DNA of 5,492 nucleotides from Escherichia phage lillemer, in the sequence record MN850599.1, one strand, 5' to 3'. How positions within the stretch are numbered: the first letter of the stretch is position 1; every line of letters starts with the position of its first letter. Below the pieces are notes generated by a model, which worked only from the letters and a program-made list of their open reading frames with translations, did not search any database and was not told the origin of the DNA. A program made the position numbers and the translations under genes. This document shows, one piece after another, positions 1-5,492 of this stretch.

Positions 1-845
1 CCATGTTCCGGTACGAAGAAGCGAGGAACAGAGTGACGGAATGTTTGCTGGACGCGGCCAGAGAATTGACCTAATGAAGTTTGGTCAGTGCCGTCGATAT
101 CATAGCCAGAAGCCCAGAAGTTAGAGCGCATAAGCAGAAGAGGACGATTATCAGCGTCATAGTGAGTTTTGCCACCGAACGAAGAGATTACGTCACGGTA
201 ACGTTGCATGAAGTAGTCACGCTCTTGGTCAGTGTGAAGTTGGGCGTAGGCAGCTTGAAGACCCATGATATCAATGGAGGTAGCGCCAGTAGTCATAGCG
301 CGGGTAATTTCCGTTTGAGGAGGAAGAGGCGCAGACCAGATGTTTTTTAAGTGACAGCAGCGGAAGCCGTGACGACGGTCGTCGTCGTTTAAGTTAGATG
401 GGTTTGCCTCAGTACGGTCAGCCATCCAAGGAGCTTTGAAGTAGTTATTGTAAATATTGAGATAGCCTTGGTGCAGGAACTTGGGAACCTTGCCGTCAGC
501 AGAAGGGATTACACCAAGATAAGAAGCACTGTCGACATATTCGCCAGTGGTTACAGGGTTAAGAGATGCGGCAGCAACGCCAGTTTTCATAAATTGAATC
601 CATGCATCGCCATAGATATGACGGTGTGGAATGTAGAAAGTGAAGTAATCAACAGTTGAGTCAATAGCCAGGCCGCGACGCAGAGGGGATAAGCGTAAAG
701 CACCAACAGCGTCAAGCTGGAAAGAATCACCAGCGATAACAGGGGTCCATGATGCGACTTTAAGGCGACCAATAGCGCCAGTGTTGAAGACCAGATGTGA
801 TAAATCAATTGCATCACGAGAGGCAGAAGTTTGAACATTAGACAT
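1..845 (-). CDS. F: Major capsid protein F, N-terminal segment (partial; starts at ATG 845..843 and runs off the window start)
   Basis: ATG at 845..843 preceded by AAGGA about 8 nt upstream. Hand translation gives MSNVQTSASRDAIDLSHLVFN..., resembling recalled phiX174 F N-terminus (MSNIQTGAERMPHDLSHLGF). Codons at the window start (plus 3..35) read ...HSVPRFFVPEH, which abuts the start of the C-terminal segment at the other window end. Not in the ORF track, consistent with a frame that has no stop before the window edge. Only the two ends were translated by hand, not the interior. Confidence 0.85.
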   Translation of the reverse strand, partial: MSNVQTSASRDAIDLSHLVFNTGAIGRLKVASWTPVIAGDSFQLDAVGALRLSPLRRGLAIDSTVDYFTFYIPHRHIYGDAWIQFMKTGVAAASLNPVTTGEYVDSASYLGVIPSADGKVPKFLHQGYLNIYNNYFKAPWMADRTEANPSNLNDDDRRHGFRCCHLKNIWSAPLPPQTEITRAMTTGATSIDIMGLQAAYAQLHTDQERDYFMQRYRDVISSFGGKTHYDADNRPLLLMRSNFWASGYDIDGTDQTSLGQFSGRVQQTFRHSVPRFFVPEH

Positions 846-889: not shown

Positions 890-976
890 TTAGAATTGTG
901 AGCCGCCAACGTACCAGAGGCGGGAGCCTTTCTTGTTGCCAGCGGAGCCGCGGCGATATGATTTGCCTTTAGCCAT
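890..976 (-). CDS. J: Small basic DNA-binding/packaging protein J (28 aa)
   Basis: Hand translation from ATG 976..974: MAKGKSYRRGSAGNKKGSRLWYVGGSQF, stop TAA at 892..890. Very basic, C-terminal RLWYVGG motif matches recalled phiX174/G4 J. Start overlaps D stop as TAATG. AAGGA SD about 10 nt upstream. Confidence 0.85.
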   Translation of the reverse strand: MAKGKSYRRGSAGNKKGSRLWYVGGSQF

Positions 977-1256
977 TACATGATTCCTTGTGCACGGAGT
1001 TTAGCGCGGATGTTGTCTTCGGCACCTTCGAGGACGTCTTTACAGCCGGCGCGGACACGGAGAACGAAAGCGAAGAGTTCGGAAGCCTTAACTGGGGATT
1101 CAACGCCATTGACGATGTTTTCAGTAAATTCGGCTCCTTCCATGATGAGACAAGCGGTCTGGGTGTTGACCGGATGAACGTAGTAAGCGATAACAGCAGA
1201 AATAAATTCAACAGGAGCAGGAAAGCGAGGATACCCGACAAAGTCCAGTGTTCCAT
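969..1256 (-). CDS. E: Lysis protein E (95 aa), embedded in gene D in a different frame
   Basis: Track ORF 969..1313, trimmed to internal ATG at 1256..1254 (GAGG about 11 nt upstream). Product MEHWTLSGILAFLLLLNLFLLLSLTTFIRSTPRPLVSSWKEPNLLK... has an N-terminal hydrophobic helix and an RP(L)VSSWK segment like recalled phiX174 E. Lies wholly within D (+ J start) in an alternative frame, as in phiX174. Confidence 0.85.
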   Translation of the reverse strand: MEHWTLSGILAFLLLLNLFLLLSLTTFIRSTPRPLVSSWKEPNLLKTSSMALNPQLRLPNSSLSFSVSAPAVKTSSKVPKTTSALNSVHKESCNG

Positions 1257-1431
1257 ATACGCAGGCCTCGACAGCGCGGCGGGCGCGGGAGCGGTCAGTA
1301 GCAATCCAGACACGGTCGCCAGTTAAGAATTCGAAGTCGTCTTCGGTAAGGTCGAGGACGGATGAGGCTTGAATCATTTTGATAGAAGCGATTGCAGTTT
1401 GAAAGGCTACAGCAGATTCGTTGGAGTTCAT
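976..1431 (-). CDS. D: External scaffolding protein D (151 aa)
   Basis: Track ORF 976..1431. Strong similarity to recalled phiX174 D (ASIKxIQASxVLDLTEDDF, VWIATDRSRARR, YGTLDFVGYPRFPAPVEF, YYVHPVN, ACLIMEGAEFTEN). ATG 1431..1429 overlaps C stop (ATGA). AAGGA SD about 9 nt upstream. Confidence 0.93.
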   Translation of the reverse strand: MNSNESAVAFQTAIASIKMIQASSVLDLTEDDFEFLTGDRVWIATDRSRARRAVEACVYGTLDFVGYPRFPAPVEFISAVIAYYVHPVNTQTACLIMEGAEFTENIVNGVESPVKASELFAFVLRVRAGCKDVLEGAEDNIRAKLRAQGIM

Positions 1432-1688
1432 TTAGTATTTCCTTTGTTGTTACGGGTTGTTTGTGTGGGGGATAGTACCCCCCGTTCGATTAATATGTCA
1501 ACTAAAGATTGTTTGCCATGTACGAAATGTTCTTCGTAGCGGAACCAGTCCTTAAGAAGAGCGCCCAGCATGTTAAGCCATTTTTCCTCGTCAAGGGCAT
1601 CAGCCTTAGAGAGTATTGCGAGTTGATGGCGAAAGGTTGAGAAGTAAGACCCTCTCGAGCTCTTTAGTGCAAGATTGAATTTCTTCAT
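1428..1688 (-). CDS. C: Protein C (86 aa; switch from dsDNA replication to ssDNA synthesis/packaging)
   Basis: Track ORF 1428..1706 begins at a GTG; the ATG at 1688..1686 gives [58 protein letters not shown]..., closely matching recalled phiX174 C. The ATG overlaps the A stop (ATGA), as in phiX174. Confidence 0.88.
1472..1501 (-). promoter_or_regulatory. Candidate sigma70 promoter pD (TTGACA-N18-TACTAT) inside gene C, upstream of D
   Basis: Viral strand: TTGACA (plus 1501..1496), 18-nt spacer, TACTAT (plus 1477..1472), about 40 nt upstream of D ATG. Same hexamers and position as the phiX174 pD promoter as recalled. Confidence 0.6.
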
Positions 1689-1770
1689 TTTCCACCAGCA
1701 GTCCACTTCGATTTAATTCGTAAGCAAGCAGTAGTAATTCCTGCAGCAGCAAGGTAGTTTTTGGTTTCAT
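1606..1770 (-). CDS. K: Protein K (54 aa), overlapping the A/C junction in a third frame
   Basis: Hand translation from ATG 1770..1768: [54 protein letters not shown], stop TAA 1608..1606. ELLLL(V/A)YELNRSGLL and LSPSTN-like segments match recalled phiX174 K. ATG overlaps B stop (TGATG). Too short to appear in the ORF track. Confidence 0.7.
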
Positions 1771-2710
1771 CAGAAGTATCCATGAGTGTTAATTTCTGAG
1801 TCATTGAAGCGATAAAATTCTGCAGGTTGGACGCTCCGATTGTTCGGGTCAAATCGCGCATAAATTTTAGCAGATTGGTCGTTACAGGTTGCGCCGCCAA
1901 AACGGTCGCGACAGATGCTTTTGCCAGCCTCGATTTCAGCTCTTTCTTGGCGTTCTGCTTCAAGACGTTGTTGAACGGGGTCGAGTCGTAGCCCAGCTGG
2001 GTCAGTTGGATCAATGTTTCGGCGGTCAGGTGCGCCATTGATAACATCTTCATCCCGAAGTTGCGGGACATTCGGATTCTGAATAGTTTGGTTGGTAGTA
2101 GAGATATTTTGGTCTTGAGTGATGCGTTCCATTCTTTATTCCCTAGGCCTTTTGCGGCCATATCAATATCAGATTTTTTGTTAACGTATTTAGCGACGTA
2201 GAAGCCGACAGCCATATACGAGGTAGCTTTAAGGGGTTCACCCTTTGAGTCGACAGGCCAGAGCCAGCCAGCGCGCGAGAATGCGTCTTGGGAGTACCGG
2301 ACTGCGATGGGCATAGAATAGCCATAGGGCCATGTGTTTTGCAAGGAGTTTATTTGGCGATTAGTGCGTACCAGCTTACCGAAGTTAGGGTCACGAGAAC
2401 CCATAGGAAGTGTGCGCATAAGGTGCACTGCGTGGAAATGTAGACGACCGTGCTGTGTGCCATACTCTGGAACACAAAAATACTGATAGCAGTCGGCGTG
2501 TGAGTCATTAGCAGAGCGACCCTCGGCAGCAAGCACCATACGACCAATATCACGGAAGTAGTCACGAAGAGCATTGGGATTATCATAGAAAGCCTGTATG
2601 CGGTCATCGGCCAGAGTAAGAGTGTCGAATACAACATACCAGCCGTCAGTGTGGGCTTGGCGCATGGCATTCATCAGTCTTTGAACGGTAAAGCCACGGC
2701 GTGATTTCAT
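1685..2710 (-). CDS. A*: A* (in-frame internal initiation product of gene A, 341 aa)
   Basis: Internal ATG at 2710..2708 (A codon 204, MKSRRGF...) with GAGG about 9 nt upstream; same position and context as the phiX174 A* start as recalled. Expression not verifiable from sequence. Confidence 0.55.
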
Positions 2711-3319
2711 GGTGGATTCCTCAAGCATTTTTGAGCATTCATCCTTAATACCCTTCGCCTTTGCATAGTTGTAATCGGCGCGGATATCTTTAAGGGGTCG
2801 TTTAGATACGAGCTGTGACCAATGGGTGTTAACAGGTTTATCATAAAGCATACTCCAGTGGGCGTTACCTTTAGGGGTGTGGTCTATAGTGTTATTAATA
2901 TCAAGTTGTCCGAGCACGTCGTAACATTCTTGCAGTTCGTCAGCAATGGCGATGACTGTAAGGCGGTAATCCTCACCGATTTCATCAGAGAGGCGTAATT
3001 CGTTAGGGGCAGTTTGAGGGATTGGTTTACGGCGAATGATATCGTCCAGGGTAAATGTGTCAGGGTATTGAATGAGTTTTGGGTTGTGTCCTTTTTGATG
3101 GGCACGATAGGCAATAGTAGTAGCCAGTTGAGAATTTGGGTTCATGTAGAAGTCTTGAGTTTCAGGGCAGCGACGGATTCCGTTTGTCCAGTGAGCAAGA
3201 ATTTCTTCGAGTAATTTTACGCGAGTGTTTACCTGTTTCCAGATACGGAGGTTTGGGGATTGCGTGAGTGTCGACATGCCAGCGGCTTCGACGAGGGGTT
3301 TGATGAGTTCTACAGACAT
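1685..3319 (-). CDS. A: Replication initiation protein A (HUH rolling-circle endonuclease, 544 aa)
   Basis: Track ORF 1685..3319. HUH motif GRLHFHAVH (H294/H296) and catalytic tyrosine pair [10 protein letters not shown] (Y374/Y378, codons at plus 2198..2200 and 2186..2188). C-terminal two-thirds closely match recalled phiX174 gpA. ATG 3319..3317 with GGAGG SD. Contains the 30-nt origin. Confidence 0.95.
1770..2132 (-). CDS. B: Internal scaffolding protein B (120 aa), encoded inside gene A in a different frame
   Basis: Track ORF 1770..2132: ...PQLRDE..., EAERxxRxEIEAGKS, RFGGATC(N/D)DxSAxIYARFD, [12 protein letters not shown]-terminus match recalled phiX174 B. ATG 2132..2130. Stop TGA overlaps K ATG. 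Confidence 0.9.
2315..2344 (-). promoter_or_regulatory. Candidate promoter pB (TTGCAA-N18-TATTCT) inside gene A, upstream of B
   Basis: Viral strand: CTCC-TTGCAA-AACACATGGCCCTATGGC-TATTCT-ATGCCCATCGCAGT. Positionally equivalent to the recalled phiX174 region TTGCAAAATACGTGGCCTTATGGTTACAGTATGCCCATCGCAGT, about 190 nt upstream of B. Hexamers are weak; assignment is tentative. Confidence 0.35.
2879..2908 (-). other. Viral (+) strand origin of rolling-circle replication (30-nt gpA recognition/nick site) inside gene A
   Basis: Reverse complement of plus 2879..2908 is CAACTTGATATTAATAACACTATAGACCAC, identical to the conserved phiX174/G4 origin as recalled. Expected nick between G and A of CAACTTG/ATATT, i.e. 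between plus 2902 and 2901 on the '-' strand. Encodes [10 protein letters not shown] of protein A. Confidence 0.85.
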
Positions 3320-3324
3320 GTTAA

Positions 3325-3346
3325 AGCCTCCGTGTTAATGGAGGCT
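3325..3346 (-). terminator. H-A intergenic stem-loop (AGCCTCC / GGAGGCT, 8-nt loop) containing the gene A Shine-Dalgarno; T_H-like terminator / 5' mRNA hairpin
   Basis: Viral strand: AGCCTCC-ATTAACAC-GGAGGCT-TTAAC-ATG(A). 7-bp stem seen directly. phiX174 has an analogous hairpin (GCCTCCAAATCTTGGAGGC) immediately upstream of the A start (recalled). Confidence 0.6.
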
Positions 3347-3376
3347 ATTAGATAGGATTTATGATGTGATTGTCAA
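3347..3376 (-). promoter_or_regulatory. Candidate sigma70 promoter pA (TTGACA-N18-TCTAAT) between H and A
   Basis: Viral strand: TAG(H stop)C-TTGACA-ATCACATCATAAATCCTA-TCTAAT, immediately followed by the hairpin. Perfect -35 hexamer (plus 3376..3371), 5/6 match at -10 (plus 3352..3347). Same place as phiX174 pA (recalled). Confidence 0.5.
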
Positions 3377-3377
3377 G

Positions 3378-4415
3378 CTATTTGCGAGACATGTTGGAGC
3401 CTACTCCGTCGGCTTTACCATCTTTCCAATAATTGTTCCAAGTGTCAGACACAGCTTTATCAACGCCGCGAAAATAATCAACAATACCAGAAGATGCGTC
3501 ACTAATGACATTTGATACGTCCTTGGCGGTTTTACCGACCTGTGATGATGCATAACGTGAGTTTTGGACTTCCTGTTTTGAGCGGTCAGTTTCTACATGG
3601 GTGCGTTCAGTGTTAGCACGAACAGCATCAATATCAGCGCCGACTTTTCGAGTAAGTTCTTGGATTTGAGCGTTAGTAAAGTGTTGTCCTGAGGTTTGAG
3701 CCTGAGTAAGCATTTGGCGCATAATTTCAGAAGTTTGTTGTTGTTTGGTGAGGCTTGTGTTTTCGAGAATAGCGCCAACACGTGACATAGATTCCTTTTG
3801 GTTGTATTGGAGCATTTCGTTTTGAGCATATACAGAGTCCTTAGTATTCATGCGTGATGTGGCAGACTGGATACCAGCGATATCCTTTTGGGTGTCGTTT
3901 TGCATCTTAGCGATTTTGACTTGGTTGTCAAGTTGCATTTTGATTAGTTGTTTTTGGTTTTCAAAACCAGCGTCAACCATACCAGCAGAGGAAGCACCAG
4001 CGCCAGCGCGTTCCCACGGGTTGAGCTCGGGGAACGCAGAAGCAAGGTAATCTTTAGTATCCTTGCCTTTATCAGCAGCAGATTTGCCACCGAGGCCAAT
4101 TTTGTTAAGAAGAGCTTGTTGAACAGCAGAGCCGCCAGCTTGTAGAGTACCATCGAGAAGTCCTTTGCCAGCATCCTTAAGTGAGGAGACGGCAGATTCG
4201 GTAAATGTAGGAGCCGCCTGATCAGGGCTAGGCGGGTTAGGTCCCTGCATAACAGATTGAATACCTGCATTGTCAGCAGAGATAGTAGTTTCAGGGGTAG
4301 CGAAGAGGCCTTGTCCAGGAGTTGAAGGGGCGGCTTGTTTATTGCCGCCCATCAGTTTGGACATTAGACCGCCAGCAAGAGTAGAGGCGATGCCGCCAGC
4401 GATTGCACCAAACAT
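3378..4415 (-). CDS. H: DNA pilot / minor spike protein H (345 aa)
   Basis: Track ORF 3378..4415. N-terminus [19 protein letters not shown], central Gln-rich heptad region ([22 protein letters not shown]...[10 protein letters not shown]...) and C-terminus DTWNN(Y/F)WKDGKADG(V/I)GSN(M/L)SRK match recalled phiX174 H. ATG 4415..4413 with AAGGA SD spanning the G stop codon. Confidence 0.95.
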
Positions 4416-4424
4416 AGAGATTCC

Positions 4425-4949
4425 TTATTTGAGAGGTTGCAGAGTTGTGATTTCTTGGTCAACCTGATTAATTGAGATGGAGCCGTACACAGTATCGGCG
4501 ACAAATGATTTCGCAATAAGGGCAATACCTACATAAACAGGATTGCCAGAGCGAGAAAGAGTAGAGACAGTAACGCAGTCCTTAACGGACAGAGTAGTAT
4601 CAGATGATTTAAATTCCAACGGATAATAAGTAACCGCAGAGGCGGGGATAGCCGTTGGGACAGTAGCAGATTCAAACCGACAAAGAACAGGTACGAGGCT
4701 GCCGATAGTAGAAAGTGAGGCAGCAACAGAAACGACCTGATTGTCGGTATGAGAGGAGTTGTCGATAGCGACAACAGCAGAGATACCGCCTGGAGAAGTC
4801 AGGGCGGTAGTAGTTAGATTCACAAATAGATTGTCACGCGCAACGGTTGGCGTATTAATAATAGGAGCCAACGCGGCGGGAGTGACAGCCTTTGTGATAG
4901 TAGTAGTAAATTGAGGAGAATTGTGTTTAGTGACAAAGTTCTGGAACAT
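4425..4949 (-). CDS. G: Major spike protein G (174 aa)
   Basis: Track ORF 4425..4997 begins at a TTG. The ATG at 4949..4947 is preceded by TAAGGA about 9 nt upstream and gives MFQNFVTKHNS..., matching the recalled phiX174 G N-terminus (MFQTFISRHNS). VVSV, RFES..VP, VKDCVT, NxVYVG and C-terminal LQPLK are also conserved. Confidence 0.9.
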   Translation of the reverse strand: MFQNFVTKHNSPQFTTTITKAVTPAALAPIINTPTVARDNLFVNLTTTALTSPGGISAVVAIDNSSHTDNQVVSVAASLSTIGSLVPVLCRFESATVPTAIPASAVTYYPLEFKSSDTTLSVKDCVTVSTLSRSGNPVYVGIALIAKSFVADTVYGSISINQVDQEITTLQPLK

Positions 4950-5000
4950 TTGAGTAGTCCTTATAGTTAGGTAGCTAACGCGCTTGCGCTTGTTCAACCT

Positions 5001-5036
5001 GACAGGGGGCGAAAAATTAAAATTTTTCCCCCTGTC
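5001..5036 (-). other. F-G intergenic long hairpin (9-bp GACAGGGGG/CCCCCTGTC stem plus inner A5/T5 stem); candidate complementary-strand origin / primosome assembly site or structural terminator
   Basis: Plus 5001..5036 gacagggggcgaaaaattaaaatttttccccctgtc is an imperfect inverted repeat. The phiX174 F-G spacer has an analogous AAAAATTTTAATTTTT-centred hairpin (recalled), and this spacer hosts the PriA site in phiX174 and the primase origin in G4. Not followed by a U-tract, so not a canonical intrinsic terminator. Confidence 0.55.
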
Positions 5037-5048
5037 ACGTTATAGGCT

Positions 5049-5492
5049 TTAAGAAGTCATGATGCTATCGCGTGTGGTCGGGATATGTCGATATACAGTG
5101 ACATTGTATTTAGCCTGAGCATTCCAGTGAGTTAATTGAAGTGATTGGAAGCATTCGTCGTATTTTTTATGGTCAATCAGTACACGGTTTTCCATGTTGC
5201 CAGTTGGACCATTTTGGATGAACGGGAAGCCTTGAAGGTTGTGATATTGTCCATCAACGTAAGAAGGATGATAGCGATACCATTGCCCTTCGGCAATTTT
5301 GATTTTTTCAGTAGAGCCAGCAGCGCCACGGAAGAGAGTTTTCATTTCGATTTCGCGAGGCGGTAAGTTACCGTAAAGAGTTGGATCACCCGCAAGGTCA
5401 GTATAGTTTAGTGCGCCTTTGCCGACGAGATAGTGAGTTTCCTCAGTGCAGGTAGGCGGGAAGCGTACGAGTTGAAGAGTCATAATAACGCC
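5049..5492 (-). CDS. F: Major capsid protein F, C-terminal segment (partial; 5' end of this segment runs off the window end)
   Basis: Track ORF 5049..5483 (MTLQLVRFPP...YRHIPTTRDSIMTS) matches the recalled phiX174 F C-terminus (TMFTLALVRFPP...TVYRNLPTTRDSIMTS). Frame stays open to 5492 (upstream codons G-V-I). Stop TAA at 5051..5049. Confidence 0.92.
   Translation of the reverse strand, partial: GVIMTLQLVRFPPTCTEETHYLVGKGALNYTDLAGDPTLYGNLPPREIEMKTLFRGAAGSTEKIKIAEGQWYRYHPSYVDGQYHNLQGFPFIQNGPTGNMENRVLIDHKKYDECFQSLQLTHWNAQAKYNVTVYRHIPTTRDSIMTS

Follow-up and report, generated by a model that had tools for sequence, protein, structure and literature searches.

A 30-nt sequence within gene A of Escherichia phage lillemer (sequence record MN850599.1) raises two questions: whether it is the origin from which the viral strand of this phage is replicated, and whether its preservation is owed to the DNA itself or to the peptide that it encodes. 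An earlier note on this genome had taken the sequence for the rolling-circle origin of phiX174 and G4, kept by purifying selection inside a diverged part of the gene. That phiX174 and G4 share the 30-mer although its flanks have diverged has been textbook knowledge since the late 1970s. We are all but certain that these 30 bases are the viral-strand origin (ori+) of a G4-like Bullavirinae microvirus, identical to the origin of phiX174 and G4. The ori+ of the Bullavirinae is already well known; new is only its placement in this lineage, where it is unannotated in GenBank. Throughout, the window denotes the whole 5,492-nt stretch of DNA that was analysed.

Genome, strand, and copy number of the 30-mer

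Compared with 50,697 phage records (megablast, reverse complement), the window matches Lilledu over its full length at 98.1% identity; other full-length matches are Lilleto, Lilleput, MG1, Lilleen, and SECphi17 (93.5% for SECphi17), and nucleotide identity to ID2, G4, and ID18 is ~80%. The gene map was made by tblastn with 11 ID2 proteins, and all 11 canonical genes could be placed (Table 1). Judged by these comparisons, the window is a complete circular genome of a G4-like microvirus (Bullavirinae); it is written in the sense complementary to the viral strand, with the break in gene F. The GenBank records of Lilledu, Lilleto, Lilleput, MG1, and others hold 5–6 protein genes each and leave the origin unannotated.

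The minus strand of the window had been proposed to be the packaged (+) strand, and three lines of evidence bear this out: the 30-mer has the orientation that it has in the phiX174 and G4 records, this strand carries all 11 genes, and its composition (27.6% C and 19.5% G) shows the excess of C over G that is found in the G4 and ID2 records.

Table 1. Coordinates of genes, protein motifs, and origin parts in the window, with the basis of each assignment.
Feature	Position	Strand	Basis and remarks
Gene H	4415..3378	-	tblastn, ID2 protein
Gene A	3319..1685	-	1635-nt ORF, 544 aa; tblastn, ID2 protein
A*	2710..1685	-	Internal start M204 (MKSRRGF...); tblastn with ID2 A*
Gene B	2132..1770	-	tblastn, ID2 protein
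Gene K	1770..1606	-	tblastn, ID2 protein
Gene C	1688..1428	-	tblastn with ID2 C, 75.6% identity; Lilledu annotation
Gene D	1431..976	-	tblastn, ID2 protein
Gene E	about 1256..981	-	tblastn, ID2 protein
Gene J	about 976..890	-	tblastn, ID2 protein
Gene F	845..1 joined to 5492..5049	-	tblastn, ID2 protein
Gene G	4949..4425	-	tblastn, ID2 protein
Viral-strand rolling-circle origin (ori+), CAACTTGATATTAATAACACTATAGACCAC	2879..2908	-	Exact single copy; identical to phiX174/G4 origin
Left decamer CAACTTGATA, gpA recognition and cleavage sequence	2899..2908	-	Invariant also in alpha3-like phages; role by phiX174 analogy
Variable part, positions 11–14 (TTAA here, ATAG in alpha3-like)	2895..2898	-	Allele comparison
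All-A/T 10-nt stretch ATATTAATAA, positions 8–17, presumed melting spacer	2892..2901	-	Read from sequence
Right 16-mer TAACACTATAGACCAC, presumed gpA binding ("key") part needed on duplex DNA	2879..2894	-	Invariant in all Bullavirinae sampled
HUH motif H294-F295-H296 of protein A	2432..2440	-	Alignment mapping; phiX174 H263-F264-H265
Catalytic tyrosines Y374 and Y378 in YVAKY	2186..2200	-	Alignment mapping; phiX174 Y343, Y347

The Lille* relatives come from Danish wastewater, were isolated on E. coli K-12, and have been described as gequatroviruses whose spike gene G is strongly diverged (Olsen et al. 2020, PMC7552041). Gene G of the window agrees with that finding: its spike protein is 41% identical in amino acids to ID2 G, and nucleotide identity to the G4-like phages is ~39–55% across the gene body. 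This divergence probably relates to growth on K-12 rather than on E. coli C.

The F–G intergenic region (4950..5048, minus strand) contains a strong DNA hairpin with a stem of ~20 bp and an A/T loop (MFE -20.7 kcal/mol, z=-5.03), after which comes a small GCGCAAGCGC palindrome. The region is ~93% identical to that of ID2 and is unalignable with the three-hairpin complementary-strand origin found at the same position in G4; the window thus has a complementary-strand origin or F terminator of the ID2 and not of the G4 type.

Read on the minus strand of positions 2780..3020, the coordinates and sequence previously given for the 30-mer are exact. It is the sole match in the window, on both strands and with up to 3 mismatches allowed, and at the same threshold 200 dinucleotide-preserving shuffles gave none by chance; the second equally good copy that the earlier note had named as telling against its reading is thus absent from the window. 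Its identity to the phiX174/G4 origin, likewise claimed there, is complete, with 30 of 30 bases matching phiX174 nt 4299–4328 and G4 nt 500–529 (NC_001420.2). BLAST of the 30-mer against the 50,697 phage records returned 565 at ≥99% identity, including phiX174 at 4299–4328 and G4-like phages at 500–529, and a further 80 in the 90–95% band, among them the alpha3-like WA45 and ID21, in which all 30 nt are covered at 93.3%. The rep_origin feature of RefSeq NC_001422, labelled "origin of viral strand synthesis", is placed at 4306, corresponding to position 8 in the 30-mer. A full-text literature search with the 30-mer matched no paper.

Constraint on the 30-mer within a variable part of gene A

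Two alleles only of the 30-mer occur among the phage records and IMG/VR. The alpha3-like variant CAACTTGATAATAGTAACACTATAGACCAC, carried by ID21, alpha3, St-1, and related IMG/VR genomes, is changed at positions 11 and 14 alone, and because of this the left decamer and the right 16-mer can be resolved as separate parts; when the alpha3-like ID21 is included, the invariant run is the right 16-mer. The layout is accordingly tripartite: the first 10 and the last 16 nt do not vary, and the 4 nt between them are variable and A/T-rich. Functional roles are assigned to these parts by analogy to phiX174, and on that analogy the anatomy of the 30-mer agrees with the classical division. That scheme, in which a recognition sequence is followed by an A/T-rich spacer and then by a binding ("key") part, is said to go back to work by van Mansfeld in 1980, Brown in 1983, Fluit in 1984–86, and Goetz in 1988.

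Scans of IMG/VR with loosened patterns for intermediate origin variants gave the two known alleles and matches with 6–12 mismatches. A recurring loosened-pattern match, CAACTTGATAATCATATATTCCACGACCAC, found in small contigs (e.g., L037), lies antisense in a tailed-phage tail-sheath gene and was rejected as a chance match.

The 30-mer begins on a codon boundary, at nt 412 of the gene A ORF, and is read in frame as codons 138–147 (Q138–H147). As in phiX174 and G4, it precedes the A* start, and the third of the gene in which it is found is the most variable one. Upstream of the origin, gene A of the window and that of phiX174 share 40% amino acid and 50% nucleotide identity, with 65 columns of the alignment gapped. 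Amino acid identity is 24% over the 30 codons to the left of the origin and 33% over the 30 codons to its right. The part of protein A upstream of the origin is 19% identical to that of the alpha3-like ID21. Amino acid identity to G4, ID2, and ID18 is 75–80% upstream of the origin and 85–87% in the C-terminal part of the protein. The description of the N-terminal third as strongly diverged thus holds against phiX174 and ID21 but has to be softened for G4, ID2, and ID18, from which the divergence is moderate only. In a sliding comparison with the G4-like phages, identity is ~50–75% at the 5' end of gene A and rises to 85–96% in the catalytic core, forming a mosaic along the length of the gene.

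The H–A intergenic region together with the extreme 5' end of gene A (3272..3379, minus strand) has ~44–54% nucleotide identity to the G4-like phages, compared with 85–96% in the catalytic core. Protein A of the window and of Lilledu also lacks the N-terminal extension (~10–17 aa) present in G4, ID2, and ID18. This pattern suggests that the 5' end of gene A and the promoter region may have been replaced or may be evolving rapidly.

Conservation of the 30-mer itself was followed in a codon alignment of gene A from five lineages (the window, ID2, G4, ID18, and phiX174) and in a seven-lineage set that adds two IMG/VR genomes, the G4-like L010 and the divergent microvirus L017. Among the five, the longest stretch of gene A without nucleotide variation coincides exactly with the 30-mer, and the next is 22 nt long. 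Among the seven, in which identity of protein A to that of the window goes down to 54.5%, the 30-mer is still the longest invariant run, and the next measures 9 nt. All 10 third-codon positions within the origin are invariant over the seven lineages, compared with 47 of 195 (24%) at the other degenerate codons whose amino acid is invariant; a naive binomial calculation for the ten wobble positions gives 7e-7, a value that overstates independence, since the lineages are related. Other invariant peptides retain far fewer invariant third positions: two peptides of 10 residues, one of which holds both catalytic tyrosines, have 3/10 each, while the shorter PNALRDYFR and TMKSRRGF have 3/9 and 2/8, and the maximum reached in any 10-codon window outside the origin is 6/10. 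In phiX174, saturation mutagenesis identified nine detrimental synonymous mutations at the homologous codons Q107–D115, colocalised with ori+ (10.64898/2026.07.25.740675).

The constraint acts on the DNA, because the wobble positions are all invariant and synonymous changes are detrimental in phiX174. As the site lies in frame within gene A under this DNA-level selection, all 30 bases and the encoded peptide are frozen together, and the proposal of purifying selection on a cis-acting site that fixes the peptide along with it is upheld. A constraint on the peptide of protein A alone, with no cis-acting function of the DNA, would account for a peptide that does not vary throughout the phiX174 and G4 lineages and is only slightly altered in alpha3-like phages (QLDNSNTIDH), but it would leave unexplained why its third positions are invariant throughout when peptides of equal length, including that of the catalytic site, keep only 3 of 10, and why synonymous mutations at the origin codons of phiX174 do harm (10.64898/2026.07.25.740675). 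Moreover, both alpha3-like changes alter amino acids, so the peptide itself is not inviolable. We give this explanation practically no credence.

A second alternative is that a short patch holding the identical 30-mer was recently exchanged between lineages, by recombination or gene conversion, rather than kept by long-term purifying selection. Microvirid coliphages do recombine, and the mosaic identity of gene A along its length would fit such exchanges. The boundaries of the conserved block are, however, sharp and equal in every phiX-type and G4-type lineage, including L017, with flanks that differ at once on both sides, and a fixed functional site is much more plausible than 30-nt conversions that recurred with the same ends each time. 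Recombination as the source of the identity is therefore extremely improbable, and long-term selection on a cis-acting DNA site is the reading that we retain.

The divergent microvirus of the seven-lineage set (IMGVR_UViG_3300005306_000004, 5241 nt) has the exact 30-mer at 4160..4189 (minus strand) amid unrelated flanks, and its A protein of 472 aa is 54.5% identical to that of the window. It appears to represent a lineage outside the phiX, G4, and alpha3 groups.

The second-longest invariant run of gene A in the window, ID2, G4, ID18, and phiX174 is the 22-nt TTAAATCGAAGTGGACTGCTGG, at ~1699..1720 (minus strand; hand-estimated coordinates, counted from the A stop at 1685). It falls where A and K overlap, directly before the start of gene C, and is broken up by the divergent microvirus. 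Its invariance is probably explained by the multiple coding frames and the translation start of C.

The predicted nick site and its initiator

In the phiX174 ori+, cleavage and religation take place at G4305/A4306, within the 30 nt, and are carried out by Tyr343 and Tyr347 (10.64898/2026.07.25.740675). By homology, the nick in this phage is predicted to fall between G2902 and A2901 of the minus strand, within the left decamer and in the GAT codon of D140.

A 90-nt DNA fold around this position gave no significant hairpin (MFE -5.8 kcal/mol, z=-0.33); the predicted structure pairs the first few bases of the 30-mer weakly and leaves the nick site and everything downstream unpaired. An origin of the hairpin-presented (stem-loop) HUH type was rejected, as there is no stable inverted repeat. 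No promoter-like or terminator-like site was found to overlap the 30-mer, and an Rfam scan of the window returned no match.

The phiX174 origin also serves in termination, re-initiation, and packaging coupling, and added constraints on the 30-mer are therefore likely. From there it is a further step to suppose that the sequence is kept mainly because it does something else in cis, for instance as a promoter or terminator, as a structured element, or as a packaging signal that does not depend on nicking. The want of an overlapping promoter- or terminator-like site, of an Rfam match, and of a significant fold all argue against that step, as does the fact that annotation and experiment both assign the identical sequence the role of an origin (NC_001422; 10.64898/2026.07.25.740675). 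We regard a different principal role as very unlikely and continue to treat the 30-mer as ori+.

The protein expected to act there is well conserved. Protein A of the window belongs to the Phage_GPA family (Pfam PF05840, E=2.8e-60) and is 84.9% identical in amino acids to G4 A and 72.2% to phiX174 A. When the residues that are catalytic or contact Mg2+ or DNA in phiX174 are mapped onto it, T233, T235, E285, R292, H294-F295-H296, Y374, Y378, K485, F486, R488, and F502 are all conserved, and there is one conservative change, R492 in the window for K461 in phiX174. The role of the tyrosines is that given by van Mansfeld 1986, as cited in a preprint (bioRxiv 10.64898/2026.07.25.740675). The gene A product is identified as a HUH/Y2 rolling-circle initiator, predicted to act on an origin within its own gene.

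From the identity of the site (100%) and the conservation of the enzyme, we infer both the cleavage position and the following course of replication in this phage. Protein A would bind the supercoiled replicative-form duplex via the right-hand part of the 30-mer, by homology with phiX174, and the all-A/T centre of the origin would melt. Either Y374 or Y378, aided by Mg2+ bound at the HUH motif, would then cut the viral strand at the predicted nick and become covalently linked to the 5' phosphate, while the free 3'-OH would prime the host Pol III, working with Rep helicase and SSB. One turn later, the second tyrosine would cut the regenerated origin, and the first strand would be ligated to a circle. 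In phiX174, the product of gene C redirects use of the origin from duplex replication to the synthesis and packaging of ssDNA. Late in infection, with gpC and procapsids, ssDNA synthesis in this phage may likewise be coupled to packaging.

Other carriers, significance, and comparison with known systems

One sequence elsewhere in the window resembles the cleavage decamer. CAACTTGACA, at 3926..3935 (minus strand) in gene H, has a single mismatch to it, is read in frame (MQLDNQ), and lacks the other 20 nt of the origin. It is the only decamer-like site outside the origin and is at the level expected by chance (≥2 matches in 10 of 200 shuffles). Lilledu shares it; ID2, G4, ID18, and phiX174 do not.

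The K-12-infecting cluster of Lille* phages and SECphi17 has a replaced spike gene G and a shortened N-terminus of protein A, yet it carries the exact phiX/G4 allele of the origin. Initiators and origins might conceivably be interchangeable across lineages, allowing replication and packaging in trans, and, as a separate matter, CAACTTGACA might be a lineage-specific site of ssDNA cleavage by A or A* outside the origin; we consider this extended reading of the sequence improbable. If it is correct, co-infecting microviruses, or a natural plasmid or satellite with the 30-mer, could be replicated and packaged in trans.

Among the matches listed from plasmids and from bacterial and archaeal assemblies, there is no natural non-phage carrier of the 30-mer. 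The sequence occurs in at least 120 genome contigs (~5.4–5.5 kb) of bacteria and archaea, and all of those listed carry phiX174 flanks; these contigs are phiX174 Illumina spike-in contamination, not natural hijackers of the origin. The full-length PLSDB matches listed are six 5386-bp "plasmids" assigned to unrelated taxa (Vibrio, Cellulomonas, Edwardsiella, and others), which, from their length and taxa, we also read as phiX174 spike-in.

The value of the result lies mainly in annotation: it supplies the ori+, a predicted nick position, and the polarity of the packaged strand for a cluster that lacks origin annotation. The locus is also a clean example of selection on DNA overriding synonymous drift within a gene, and synonymous constraint at ori+ has been directly reported for phiX174 in a 2026 preprint (10.64898/2026.07.25.740675).

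Compared with the phiX174 ori+, the site in the window agrees in all 30 nt, in reading frame, in the encoded peptide (Q107–H116 in phiX174), in strand sense, in its position upstream of A*, and in the company of a conserved HUH/Y2 protein A. It differs in its setting, as the flanks and the N-terminal part of protein A are strongly diverged (40% amino acid identity, 65 gapped columns), and the phages differ in host range, the closest relatives of the window having been isolated on E. coli K-12 MG1655.

With G4, ID2, and ID18 (Gequatrovirus, the clade to which the window itself belongs), the locus shares the identical 30-mer, its homologous position in gene A, and the upstream flank GTGCTCGGA. 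Unlike those phages, the window encodes a protein A without the N-terminal extension of ~10–17 aa, and the 30 codons on either side of the origin are 63–80% identical in amino acids.

Alpha3, St-1, and ID21 (Alphatrevirus) have the same left decamer and right 16-mer at the same location in gene A. However, they carry T>A at position 11 and A>G at position 14, giving the peptide QLDNSNTIDH, whereas the window carries the phiX/G4 allele.

The stem-loop HUH origins of circoviruses and geminiviruses, with their nonanucleotide loop, the double-strand origins (dso) of plasmids of the pT181/pC194 type, and the f1 gpII origin resemble the proposed scheme in the sequence-specific nick by a tyrosine of a HUH-type or related initiator, the covalent link to the 5' end, and priming from the 3'-OH. 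In contrast to such origins, the predicted nick site of the window has no hairpin, and it is embedded in the coding sequence of its own initiator rather than in an intergenic region.
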